DNA from: a candidate division WOR-3 bacterium
GTDB taxonomy: Bacteria > Hydrothermota > 32-111
Assembly: GCA_037481815.1 (NCBI GenBank)
Contig: JBBFKX010000002.1
Span: forward strand, 169,663 to 233,662
Direction: 5' to 3'
DNA length: 64,000 bases
Part shown: positions 11,044-14,382 of the stretch, piece after piece
Numbering within the stretch: position 1 is the first letter of the stretch
Layout: each line of letters begins with the position of its first letter
Program-made: the position numbers and the translations under genes
Notes under the pieces: generated by a model
Databases searched by the model: none
Seen by the model: the letters and a program-made list of their open reading frames with translations, nothing else
What the model was told of the DNA's origin: nothing

Positions 11044-14000
11044 TTAAATCTCCTTCCATGTGAATTCTATTGGAAGAACACTCAAAGGATGCGCATAGAA
11101 ACCATGAACATCGTCATGTATCGCGATCTGCCGATAGTTGTGAGTTAAAAATACCCAGGGTGCATCATCGACAATTATTCTTTCAATATCCTGATACAAT
11201 TTATTTCTTTCTTCAAAATTAGTTGTCATCCTTGCTTTTAAAATGAGATCGTCCACCTGTTTGTTCGAGTAAAAAGAGTTGTTTCCACCATCACCAAAAC
11301 TTTCACTATGGAAAAGTGGATAAACGAAATTGTCAGGTTCACCTGTATCACCAGCCCAACCCATCATAAAAAGATCACATTTCCCGGAGTGCATCCTGTC
11401 AAGAAGTTCCACCCATTTCAAGGGAACTATTTTTATCCTGATACCTATTTCCTGCCACATACTCTGTAAGAGTTCCGCCCTCTTTATAACCCTTTCAGAA
11501 TTTGAACATATCATTTCAAAACTGTGATTTATACCGTTAGGAAAACCGGCTTTTAACATCATCTCTTTTGCTTTTGATGGATTGTAAGGATAACCTTCAA
11601 GAGATTTGTTGTAACATGGAAGTGCTGGGGGAAATACACCTTTTGAAATGATCCCGAGACCAAACATTGTTTCGTTGATGTACCTTGATTTATCGGTAGC
11701 ATAGTTTATTGCTTTTCTTATCTCTTTTGTTAATGTGATCTCATTTTTTCTTGACATGTTGAAACCAACATACTGAACATCAAGAGATGGTATCGTTAGA
11801 ACTTTTATATCAACTCTGTTCTGTTTTTTTAATTTTTCAAGATCCTCAGCGTTTACAGAACAATAATCTATGTTTTTCGCCAGGAGTTCTTCAAACTCAT
11901 CCTCTTCCCTTTTTATCTTTATTTCAACATTTTCAACAAAAGGTTCTCCTCCAAAATAATGTTTGTTGGATTCCATAAGAATCCTTTCATCATCAACATA
12001 TTTTAAAATGAATGGTCCACAACCGATGCAGTTGTTTTTCATCTTTTCATCGGAAAATTTTACCATATCCTTTTTTATTACCGCAAGACATATCACAGCA
12101 AGATTTGATAGGAATGGAATATAAGGATATTCAAGAGTAAACTTTATCGTATGTTCATCGAGTATTTCAATTCCCTCAATATCACGGGCTCTTCTTTTTA
12201 TGTAATTCTGGGCTCCCTTTATCATATTCACAAAAGGAGCGTTTGGAGTTAAAAGAACATTTTTTATGCTCTCTTTCACATCCTCTGCTGTTACAGGTGT
12301 TCCATCATGAAAGTAAGCGTTTTTTCTTAAAAAGAAAACCCACTCCGTTGCATCAGAGTTGATATGCCAGTATTTTGCAAGTGCTGGGATAACACTTGTA
12401 TCCTTTCCAAATCTCACAAGTCCAACATGGATCTGTTGTAAAACTGTATTACTCGTTGAATCACCAACGAGTGCTGGCTGCCAGTGAACGGGCAGGTTGT
12501 TCATTATGAATTTAAACCTATTCTTTTCAGGATCCCTTTTGATTATGAACTTCTCTGAAAATGTTTCCTGTATACCTGAAACCATCTTTAATGACTCTTC
12601 ACTTTTCAAAATATCATTTTTAAAAATCCTGTTAAGTTCATCAGCCATCTGGTTTATTTTTTCAGATTTTGAAATTATGTTCATGTATAGTTTGACAATC
12701 TCATCCTTTAAAATTTCCTGCTGGGTTATGGTATCGTAAATCTCTTTCAAAAGATTTTTAAAATTCACTGCTGAGTCCTTTACATCCTTTACAACCTTGT
12801 TGCTCGTTTCTATTGAGAAAATAATCTTTTCCGCAGAATCGAGTTCTTTATCAACAATGCTTAAAACATCGTGTAAAAGTTTTTCCATATTTTTTACTAT
12901 ATCTTTTATCTCAAGTGAGGCATCAGTTGCTTTTTTTATGAGTTCTTTTGTCTGTGAAACTATAACAACAAGATTCTGTTGATATTTGCCTGATCTTGCT
13001 GCCTCGATCGAAGCATAGAGAGAAAGCAATTTTGTCTGTTCTGAAAGTTCTTTCAATTCTAAACTCGTTTCAAAAATTGATTTCAAATTTTTTGAAATTT
13101 CGTTGAAATCATCTTTAAGATTGACTATCATCTCAAGTGTTTTTTCGATATCATTTTTCACATTAACTACACTCGTTGAGAACTCGTTTACTGCACCAAG
13201 GAGAAGGTTAAGATTATCCTCTATCTCTCCAACATTTTTTAGCATCAACTGTTCACTTTCCTCTATTGATTCGATGGCACCGAAATAGTTTTTAACAACC
13301 TTTGATTGTTCATCGTTTCTTTCGATGAACTCGTTTATAACTCCCATCGTTTGATCTATAATGTTTTTACTGTTTTCAAGGAAAAATTCTATCTTTTTGA
13401 AAATCTTTATCTCTGTTGCTATAGAATTATCTAATGATTTCTTTTCATAAATAAGATCTGACAGAGGTTCAAGTTGTTGCATAAGATTCGATAGTCCAAC
13501 CTTTACATCGGATTGTGTTTTAACCATTGTCATAAGTTTTTCGGTCGACTGTAAAGAAACATCAATTATATTTTGAACACTTTTGTTAAGGTCGTTGATC
13601 AGATTTTTATTTTTATCCTGTATGTTTATATATTCTTTCATCTTGTCCGACTTCAAAACAATATCAGAAAGGTTCATCTCAACATTTTTTAACCTGAAAT
13701 TCAAAAGATCTATGTTTCTTTTTAATGCATCGATTCTGAACTTAATGTTATCGACAGATTCAATAACATTTTCTGTTTTCACTTTTATGTTCTGAATACT
13801 TTCAGGAATCCTTTTTGTTAGATTGAATGTTTTGTTCGCAAGAAGAAGCATCCTGTCAGCGATAACTTCAAAACCTCTTCCACTCTCTCCAGCATGATAC
13901 GATTTTATCCCTGCGTTTCTTGCTGCCGATTCAGTCATCTGTGCTATACCAATTATGATCTCGGTTATTTGACCTATGTGTTTTGAATACTCGTTAAATG

Positions 14001-14382
14001 GTTTTACAATATCGAGAATCTGGGATGAACCACTCGTAAAAATATTCAACTGGTTTATCACCTGATCAAACTCTTTGACACTATTTTTGATACTTTCCGT
14101 TGAGTTTTTTGAATAATCTATTAAAACATCCGCAGCTTCAGAAACTATCTGTATCGAAGCGTAAAGTTTGTTTCCTTTGTCTTCAATCTTTTCTATTTCA
14201 TCAACCAATCCTTTTTCTTCAAATGAAATCGAAGAGAGTATAGAATGTGCGTTTCTGTTTATCTCAAGAAGTTCATCATCATCTATTTTTATAGTTTTCA
14301 AAGCATAGATCAGGGCTGTTGGATCAAATTCCTCTTCCTGTATTACTCCCTTTCTTTTAAAAAAATTGAAGAAAGACACCAT
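11044..14382 (-). CDS. Soluble MCP-like chemoreceptor (about 600 aa of coiled coil/MA domain) fused to a C-terminal family-5 solute-binding protein domain
   Basis: 1112 aa with no hydrophobic TM stretch. N-terminal half: a long coiled coil with an MCP-signal-like tip ([16 protein letters not shown]; a second degenerate copy, [20 protein letters not shown]). C-terminal ~490 aa: SBP_bac_5 hallmarks ([60 protein letters not shown]...YFGGEP). First gene of the che operon. Confidence 0.75.
   Translation of the reverse strand: [1112 protein letters not shown]

Follow-up and report, generated by a model that had tools for sequence, protein, structure and literature searches.

A membrane-free soluble chemoreceptor that combines two signaling hairpins and a normally exported solute-binding fold in one chain is encoded in a 64,000-nucleotide (nt) stretch of DNA from a candidate division WOR-3 bacterium (contig JBBFKX010000002.1, positions 169,663 to 233,662 of the forward strand; hereafter, the window). 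Its gene occupies positions 11044..14382 of the window, stop codon included, as delimited from the list of open reading frames (ORFs) and the translation, and comprises hairpin 1, hairpin 2, and a domain of the family-5 solute-binding proteins (SBP5). The gene lies on the minus strand, as do all features of the gene and its operon given below. Its ORF is intact, starts with ATG, and specifies 1112 amino acids (aa). The protein probably functions as a soluble cytoplasmic chemoreceptor in which a DppA-like SBP5 input is joined to the C-terminal helix of a signaling coiled coil. It belongs to a widespread family that has no previous description in the searchable literature.

Pfam assigns residues 664 to 1029 to SBP_bac_5 (E = 5e-81, 273 bits against a cutoff of 32.4) and two separate stretches to the methyl-accepting chemotaxis protein (MCP) domain MCPsignal (PF00015; E = 4e-29, 102 bits against a cutoff of 34.6), and each hairpin on its own matches solved MCPs. 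A preliminary description of the region, made from the letters of the sequence, had proposed that about 490 aa of SBP_bac_5 are fused to the C terminus of MCP-like sequence and that no signal peptide or transmembrane (TM) helix occurs in the 1112 residues, and both claims hold. The N terminus is charged, with no hydrophobic signal region and no lipobox detected by inspection of the sequence and a hydropathy scan. A 19-residue Kyte-Doolittle scan finds no TM segment anywhere in the protein, its highest value (1.51, at residue 751) falling inside the SBP fold. Because the receptor is soluble, with neither signal peptide nor TM segment, it is assigned to the cytoplasm, and most of its homologues likewise lack both.

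The N-terminal ~600 aa are two complete MCP signaling hairpins in tandem, with tips at E166 and K466, and not the one degenerate signaling domain of the preliminary description. In an AlphaFold2 (AF2) model of the receptor, used for secondary structure and confidence (mean predicted local distance difference test [pLDDT], 83.4; predicted template modeling score [pTM], 0.63), four long helices (residues 35-163, 169-302, 317-463, and 468-611) form arms of ~129 to 147 residues. The turns between them at 164-168 and 464-467 coincide with two MCP-tip-like motifs that lie 300 residues apart in the family alignment, and a globular domain begins at residue 622. Hairpin 1 (residues 35-302; 13477..14280) is delimited by the AF2 model and its match to solved MCPs, and hairpin 2 (residues 317-611; 12550..13434) is delimited by the model and by matches to Tsr and TM1143. 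Between them lies a linker (residues 303-316; 13435..13476) in which the modeled helix is interrupted at 303 and again at 313-316 (pLDDT, 84 to 91).

Both hairpins are recognizable individually. Hairpin 1 aligns without gaps to Tsr (query 126-202 to Tsr 351-427, so that the Tsr number equals the query number plus 225), which places E166 at Tsr E391; hairpin 2 alone also matches Tsr (E = 6e-8), with K466 at the same Tsr position. The alignments to Thermotoga maritima TM1143 are gapless over 160 aa for hairpin 1 (query 58-217) and over 162 aa for hairpin 2. The register of the hairpins therefore appears to be 44H-like, the class to which we take TM1143 to belong. HHalign relates hairpin 1 to hairpin 2 with a probability of 94% (E = 8.5e-8, 232 columns, tips in register) and relates the two to a canonical class of SBP5-fused proteins with a single hairpin with probabilities of 99.5% and 99.7%, respectively; both are nearer to that class than to each other. 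Across 72 homologues, hairpin 1 is free of indels from A75 to Q290. The linker is the most variable region of the family, the interval from Q290 to K330 spanning 27 to 50 aa with indels that are not multiples of seven.

The canonical elements of the MCP tip are split between the two hairpins, both of which are predicted to adopt hairpin geometry. In a consensus taken over 82 non-identical double-hairpin homologues, tip 1 (residues 153-178; 13849..13926), which is defined by invariant columns, retains the canonical turn and C-helix. Its N-helix is derived yet conserved: in Tsr numbering, L380 is replaced by R, E385 by K, and R388 by H, and N381 is kept. Tip 2 (residues 451-479; 12946..13032), located from the family consensus and the alignment of K466 with Tsr E391, shows the reverse arrangement: its N-helix is canonical apart from N381 to Y, and a derived sequence, itself conserved, stands in for the GRGF turn and the canonical C-helix. 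The tip of the related single-hairpin class is fully canonical, and each of the two hairpins has kept a different share of the ancestral tip. The tip that the preliminary description called degenerate is near-canonical, and it is the N-helix preceding it that has diverged. Given two tandem hairpins with complementary conservation, coupling to CheW and CheA needs to be understood differently than for a single signaling domain.

The tips are the best-conserved segments of the coiled coil, with 48% and 43% identity in the most distant group versus 15 to 21% for the arms, suggesting that both are under selection; because tip 2 is conserved along with tip 1, hairpin 2 is not decaying. Methylation of the receptor, and adaptation by this route, is probably absent. 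Conserved methylatable Glx pairs were not detected among the 82 homologues, in which the sole match to [ASTG]xx[EQ][EQ]xx[ASTG] is kept in 5, and there is no cheR or cheB in the operon or elsewhere in the 64-kb window.

The remainder of the protein (residues 622-1112; 11047..12519) is a two-lobe, DppA/GbpA-like SBP_bac_5 domain according to Pfam, phmmer, and Foldseek. Searches of the Protein Data Bank with phmmer match its whole length to GbpA/HbpA (3M8U, 230 bits) and DppA (1DPP, 208 bits). The modeled domain has a Foldseek TM-score of 0.85 to liganded GbpA (3M8U), with a probability of 1.0 to 3M8U, 1DPE, and others, and as modeled the DppA/GbpA-like fold is complete. At long distance, this domain is the best-conserved region of the receptor (34%). 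The nearest NCBIfam models to the C-terminal half are DppA, Opp, GsiB, and NikA, all scoring far under their equivalog cutoffs; the DppA model (NF043070) gives 225 bits against a cutoff of 1005, short of equivalog level, and SgrR gives 30 bits against 476. Coupling to the bundle is short: in the AF2 model, a connector of 10 residues (residues 612-621; 12520..12549) links the end of the last bundle helix, at residue 611, to the start of the first SBP strand, at 622.

An SBP_bac_5 domain is expected to have an export signal and ABC permease partners. Here neither is present, and the neighboring genes encode Che, TPR, PATAN, and Roadblock proteins, with no ABC permease or ATPase genes among the operon neighbors of the receptor gene. 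By contrast, its closest unfused relatives are exported proteins, with a hydrophobic signal at the N terminus in 54 of 56 and a lipoprotein-like Cys in several of those inspected. This indicates that an exported SBP was recruited, with the coiled coil in place of the signal.

The binding pocket retains its principal anchor. Alignment with 1DPP and 3M8U places residue D1012, in a GWAGD motif (residues 1008-1012; 11347..11361), at the position of DppA Asp408 and GbpA Asp432, which form a salt bridge to the charged N terminus of the ligand (PMC3295651). This Asp is kept in 88 of 90 double-hairpin homologues, 26 of 31 single-hairpin proteins, 8 of 9 membrane-anchored proteins, and 55 of the 56 closest unfused SBPs, and the Trp of the motif is kept in all 90 double-hairpin homologues. 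To judge from these residues, the pocket looks functional and amino-group anchoring, and, with the Asp kept in 88 of 90 homologues, the domain is most likely an intracellular ligand sensor. The preliminary description had proposed sensing of an intracellular peptide, oligosaccharide, or metal ligand through the SBP fold. The conserved Asp supports the sensing, and of the ligand it specifies a DppA-like amino-group anchor, which does not fix the class.

The architecture is that of a large family. A word-indexed search returned 17 full-length database homologues. An exhaustive profile search of 1.84 billion representatives, with subsequent motif and Pfam checks, revealed a far larger superfamily. 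About 80 homologues are full length; they range in identity from 96% down to 27% and come from ~40 genomes of WOR-3 and Cloacimonadota. Among GTDB species representatives, 43 loci carry the double-hairpin form, nearly all of them WOR-3 (including "TA06," Acetofilamentum, and Stahlbacteria) or Cloacimonadota, and two WOR-3 metagenome-assembled genomes (MAGs) hold orthologues of the same length that are 96% identical to the receptor of the window.

In the wider superfamily of fusions, the SBP5 domain is always C-terminal. Besides the double-hairpin proteins (~1030 to 1140 aa), there are soluble proteins with a single canonical hairpin (~800 to 845 aa), which are encoded by orphan genes in Firmicutes-like neighborhoods; membrane-anchored proteins with a single hairpin and two N-terminal hydrophobic segments (~1050 to 1066 aa); and proteins in which the hairpin-SBP5 unit occurs twice (1600 to 1690 aa). 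Two of the last type (P0021, 1605 aa; P0037, 1673 aa) have two MCPsignal and two SBP_bac_5 domains in the order hairpin-SBP5-hairpin-SBP5 and look like single-hairpin proteins joined covalently in tandem, unless gene calling has fused adjacent paralogues. Four membrane-anchored members (P0065, P0071, P0102, and P0148; ~1066 aa) have two adjacent N-terminal hydrophobic segments, a DUF948-like coiled coil, one canonical hairpin with its tip near residue 335, and SBP5; one member of this variant comes from an Acidobacteriota MAG. Outside the chemoreceptors, P0018 (1277 aa) joins a Ser/Thr kinase and a STAND-like AAA_16 domain to a C-terminal SBP_bac_5, and P0138 (1592 aa) joins AAA_16 to the same domain, suggesting a wider use of the SBP5 fold as a cytoplasmic sensor. 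Repeated fusion to such varied signaling proteins, from single and double hairpins, membrane-anchored MCPs, and the doubled hairpin-SBP5 form to kinase and STAND proteins, is typical of a sensor module.

No natural split into a gene for hairpin 1 and a gene for hairpin 2 with SBP5 was found: of the two candidate loci, L038 proved to be full length and L051 has one stop in a continuous frame. In L051 (a JGI 3300006653 contig, positions 953-1029), an in-frame TAA between KKIEN and LKSSKYI divides the gene call into a 276-aa protein with hairpin 1 only (P0120) and a downstream ORF, and this stop is probably a sequencing error or the mark of a pseudogene. Source annotations (NCBI and IMG) name the fusions "ABC transporter substrate-binding protein" or "hypothetical." Full-text literature searches combining SBP_bac_5 with chemoreceptors returned free SBPs that act via receptors, and no account of the fusion was found.

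The receptor gene opens a che operon, as the preliminary description had stated, and is the sole receptor gene in it. It is followed, with gaps of 3 to 11 nt among the genes through cheC, by cheW (132 aa, a single CheW domain; 10641..11039), which begins after a gap of 4 nt; cheY (122 aa; 10261..10629); cheA (626 aa, with Hpt, P2, dimerization, HATPase, and CheW-like P5 domains; 8377..10257); and a phosphatase gene of the cheC/cheX type (205 aa; 7756..8373), all assigned by Pfam. The preliminary description listed the operon through cheC, and five further genes follow. They encode a 902-aa multi-TPR protein (5042..7750), which is conserved in the operon and has a 901-aa equivalent in locus L003; a 371-aa PATAN (DUF4388/PatA_N) protein (3924..5039), syntenic in the closer WOR-3 loci and in L003; and three Roadblock/LC7 proteins (2397..3931), namely, one TPR-plus-Roadblock protein (3215-3931) and two Roadblock proteins (2874-3218 and 2397-2867). 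All five follow with overlaps or with gaps of at most 6 nt; the spacings before the three Roadblock genes are -8, -4, and 6 nt, after which a 108-nt gap closes the operon. Upstream, a 70-bp AT-rich spacer (14383..14452) separates the receptor gene from recR and is the probable start of the operon; it holds a ribosome-binding site (AAAGGA) 7 nt upstream of the start codon. A promoter-like TTGATT-17-TATATT in the spacer (14433-14405) is weakly supported, with 55 promoter-like sites counted in this region versus 52.7 expected from shuffled sequence.

The receptor and che genes are conserved together across ~30 WOR-3 genomes, and the order receptor-cheW-cheY-cheA-cheC-TPR-(PATAN)-Roadblock is maintained in ~30 WOR-3 loci in which the receptor falls to 27% identity. 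The CheW of L003 is likewise short (143 aa), and the occurrence of cheC in the operon is as in systems of the Bacillus subtilis and Thermotoga type. Across loci L005 to L046, CheY is 70 to 100% identical where the receptor, CheW, and CheA are only 25 to 40% identical, an unusually strong constraint. The conserved synteny with cheW, cheY, and cheA is the support for a presumed binding of CheW/CheA and control of the kinase by the receptor.

Because the operon runs on into TPR, PATAN, and Roadblock genes, its output is not necessarily flagellar, and the 64-kb window is devoid of flagellar genes. Rather than a flagellar switch, the system probably addresses a polarity or surface motility module built from these three kinds of protein, and the che-TPR-PATAN-Roadblock operon resembles a polarity module of the Frz/MglB type. 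PATAN regulators are known to act on the type IV pilus motor (bioRxiv 10.1101/2021.06.11.447907), and in Myxococcus a Che system with a soluble MCP feeds a GTPase/Roadblock polarity module that acts through SgmX, a protein with 14 TPRs, on PilB (PMC11580455). The one cultured WOR-3 isolate has pili, whereas motility was not observed in it (PMC12285271), and a prepilin peptidase gene in the window (described below) points in the same direction. Upstream of a receptor homologue in Cloacimonadota (locus L001, positions 1-7800) lie genes for CheR, a PatA_N-plus-TPR protein, a DnaA-like AAA protein, an Arf-like small GTPase, and a T2SSE (PilB/PilT-type) ATPase; the last two may be the components that are missing from the WOR-3 operon.

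Elsewhere in the window are genes for a type IV prepilin peptidase (Peptidase_A24; 56547-57329, minus strand) and for an 881-aa C39-like peptidase with a type IX secretion system C-terminal sorting domain (48170-50815, minus strand). A second signaling cluster (27799-34372) encodes a PilS-like GGDEF protein with six TM segments (plus strand), a response regulator with an HD domain, and a 1315-aa PAS/GAF/PAS histidine kinase. The G+C content of the window is ~32%, the GC skew is negative in almost all 2-kb intervals, and the minus strand carries nearly all of the genes, which would fit one replichore being read against the leading strand.

In the mechanism that we favor, a small intracellular ligand with a free amino group, most likely a peptide from import or turnover or a similar metabolite, would bind between the lobes of the SBP5 domain. 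Closure of the lobes would pull or repack the last helix of the bundle via the 10-residue connector, and the CheA/CheW complex at the conserved tip or tips would change its activity. Phosphorylated CheY, reset by CheC, would then act on the TPR/PATAN/Roadblock module.

Several observations weigh against this mechanism. Ligand binding by the domain is something that we infer from sequence; the SBP_bac_5 family is without a clear ligand preference (PMC10443332), and the conservation of GWxxD may be partly structural. Among the pocket residues of characterized relatives, whose conservation the preliminary description had proposed to check, the equivalent of DppA Asp408 is kept and those of DppA R355 and GbpA Arg33 are not. 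The position aligned to R355, which we take to be the Arg that holds the dipeptide carboxylate, is an Asn beside a 2- to 3-residue deletion. The position of Arg33, a GbpA-specific ligand contact (PMC3295651), is variable (N/G/S/E/D). With both Arg positions unconserved, the ligand would be neither the canonical DppA substrate nor that of GbpA; glutathione binding of the GbpA type, considered in view of the top match to 3M8U, was rejected because of the Arg33 position. Tip 2 is without the near-universal GRGF turn and the N-helix of hairpin 1 is non-canonical, such that productive coupling to CheA and CheW is assumed. Finally, the receptor gene in Cloacimonadota is not adjacent to che genes, no small GTPase or pilus ATPase gene occurs in the operon of the window, and the output is read from gene neighborhood alone.

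As to the packing of the two hairpins, we tentatively propose, with rather less than even confidence, that they fold into one intramolecular four-helix bundle, giving a single-chain, "pseudo-heterodimeric" receptor with one SBP5 domain per bundle, by which a peptide-like signal inside the cell would control polarity or pili in a Frz-like manner. In such an up-down-up-down bundle, the C-helix of hairpin 1 would adjoin the N-helix of hairpin 2, and the C-helix of hairpin 2 would adjoin the N-helix of hairpin 1. All canonical elements, namely, the turn and C-helix of hairpin 1 with the N-helix of hairpin 2, would come together on a single face of ancestral type. The elements that are derived but conserved, from the N-helix of hairpin 1 and from the C-helix of hairpin 2, would line a new, opposite face, so that side-by-side packing would explain the complementary conservation of the tips economically. 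The connection between the C-helix of hairpin 1 and the N-helix of hairpin 2 bears on this packing, being a short loop with non-heptad indels that is modeled with high confidence. By a rough steric argument of our own, three 55-kDa SBPs per trimer would fit the ~62 nm2 available in a 12-nm hexagonal lattice, and six would not fit in one plane. Receptor homodimers in arrays turn one subunit toward the trimer axis and the other toward CheW/CheA; a single-chain bundle, if real, would hard-wire the asymmetry that ordinary homodimers show only transiently.

An end-to-end arrangement is the chief rival to this packing and, in our judgment, a possible though doubtful one. Here the hairpins would be opposed, as in DosM, and a homodimeric rod ~40 nm long would place its tips in two CheA/CheW baseplates with SBP5 at the midplane, serving a mainly structural role with or without sensing. 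Tandem signaling domains define DosM, which cryo-electron tomography shows as an extended rod bridging two baseplates (PMC7534058, PMC9321776), and the receptor of the window is likewise soluble, with two full-length hairpins of similar size, two conserved tips, and a loop between the C-helix of hairpin 1 and the N-helix of hairpin 2 that might serve as a hinge. The hallmarks of the F9 systems are nevertheless absent, in that CheW is a single 132-aa domain rather than a triple one, cheB and cheR are missing, and cheC is present. A sensor is present here, whereas 98% of DosM homologues are without a sensor domain. Both hairpins are nearest to the SBP5-fused single-hairpin class, pointing to an independent duplication, with DosM compared by description. 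Moreover, in a rod every face of a tip bundle would pair a canonical with a derived helix, leaving neither tip fully canonical; the complementary pattern would be simpler under side-by-side packing, and the junction of the hairpins is modeled with a high pLDDT (84 to 91). By our estimate, the pTM of 0.63 is compatible with either packing. A matched-indel comparison across the four helices was likewise uninformative, hairpin 1 being free of indels and all length variation being tip distal, as both arrangements predict.

Other rivals concern the SBP5 domain or the gene itself. The domain might have kept its fold, lost its binding, and become a module for protein interaction, localization, or oligomerization in a receptor that is regulated otherwise. 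We regard this as improbable, even though the C-terminal regions of soluble receptors can serve localization, as in TlpD (PMC13001251), two ligand-contact residues of the nearest characterized relatives are unconserved, and no ABC transporter genes lie nearby. The pocket Asp and Trp are as conserved as in exported, transport-competent relatives, the two-lobe fold is whole and is the best-conserved part of the receptor at long range, and the domain is fused to unrelated signaling outputs, as input modules usually are. The database reading, an ordinary exported ABC transporter SBP with a long N-terminal extension, draws on the source annotations and on the DppA/Opp-type scores of the C-terminal half, which lie far under every equivalog cutoff (for DppA, less than a quarter of the required bits). 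It is refuted for practical purposes by the absence of a signal peptide, lipobox, and TM segment, by 600 aa of bona fide MCP signaling sequence ahead of the SBP domain, and by the position of the gene within a che operon devoid of permease and ATPase genes. The preliminary description had named a frameshift joining two genes as a way in which it could be wrong, and a join of adjacent MCP and SBP genes by frameshift or assembly chimera has next to no likelihood. No support for such an artifact was found, and the in-frame stop in L051 shows that low-quality copies exist. Conservation refutes it: the ORF is continuous in 43 independent loci and ~80 full-length proteins from many studies, with identities from 96% to 27%, and the junction, from the helix end across 10 residues to the first SBP strand, is itself conserved.

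Soluble MCPs with C-terminal sensors and receptors with tandem signaling domains are already known, from TlpD and DosM, respectively. What is new is the use of a family-5 SBP as the covalent input of a cytoplasmic chemoreceptor, the size and misannotation of the family, and the complementary division of tip elements over two hairpins. In chemotaxis, SBP5 proteins were known only as free periplasmic partners, as in the DppA-Tap pair, and here the fold has been recruited repeatedly as a covalent cytoplasmic input, which would give intracellular peptide or metabolite pools direct control over taxis or polarity. The family comprises dozens of clusters at 50% identity in WOR-3, Cloacimonadota, Firmicutes-like, and Acidobacteriota MAGs. 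Because annotation pipelines name these fusions as ABC transporter binding proteins, chemoreceptor censuses and transporter counts for these phyla are both distorted. The split of the tip elements constitutes a natural experiment on the asymmetry of receptor dimers and, if the hairpins do form a single-chain bundle, the "subunit" roles in trimer formation and in CheA/CheW docking would be separately mutable. In the conserved che-TPR-PATAN-Roadblock operon there is a compact set of genes that may encode, outside the Myxococcota, a polarity pathway like Frz.

The nearest parallels to the overall layout are Helicobacter pylori TlpD and Salmonella McpA, which are cytoplasmic, lack TM segments, and carry the sensor after the signaling domain, a CZB domain in TlpD (PMC13001251). 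The reversed, C-terminal placement of the sensor noted in the preliminary description is thus real, and the MCP-then-CZB layout of TlpD gives it a studied precedent. Unlike the present receptor, with its 490-aa SBP5 domain and two hairpins, TlpD and McpA have a zinc-binding CZB domain of ~65 aa, one hairpin, and a different operon context. Use of a family-5 SBP to give a chemoreceptor its ligand specificity is also known, from Escherichia coli DppA with Tap and H. pylori AibA with TlpB (PMC8050422). In those cases, however, a free SBP is exported and docks on the periplasmic domain of the receptor, whereas here the SBP is fused, without an export signal, and cytoplasmic. As a C-terminal cytoplasmic signaling module, SBP5 has counterparts in SgrR-type proteins, in which it follows a helix-turn-helix domain, and in P0018 and P0138. 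The output of the SgrR, STAND, and kinase proteins is transcription or kinase/NTPase activity and not a Che array, and the similarity to SgrR is weak.

Two tandem MCP signaling domains in one soluble polypeptide are shared with Vibrio cholerae DosM (VC1403) of the F9 class (PMC7534058, PMC9321776), which bridges the baseplates of cytoplasmic arrays. In DosM systems the adaptor is a triple CheW (CheW3), which marks the F9 class (PMC9321776), and CheB and CheR are present; in contrast, the window has a single CheW, CheC, and no CheB or CheR, and its receptor has a large C-terminal sensor and complementary tip divergence. With both hairpins nearest to the SBP5-fused single-hairpin class, the duplication apparently took place within the SBP5-fused lineage, separately from DosM. 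The best-matching solved signaling domains are those of the soluble and 44H-class T. maritima receptors TM1143 and Tm14, which differ in that each chain has only one hairpin, with a canonical tip and with methylation sites. For the pathway as a whole, the closest analogue is the Frz system of Myxococcus xanthus, in which FrzCD signals via CheA and CheY proteins to MglA/MglB/MglC and thence to SgmX and PilB (PMC11580455). No equivalents of an MglA-type GTPase, FrzZ, or FrzS were identified in the operon, and FrzCD is without an SBP domain. The likeness is one of domain type: both pair a soluble receptor with che genes tied to Roadblock proteins and to a very large TPR protein.

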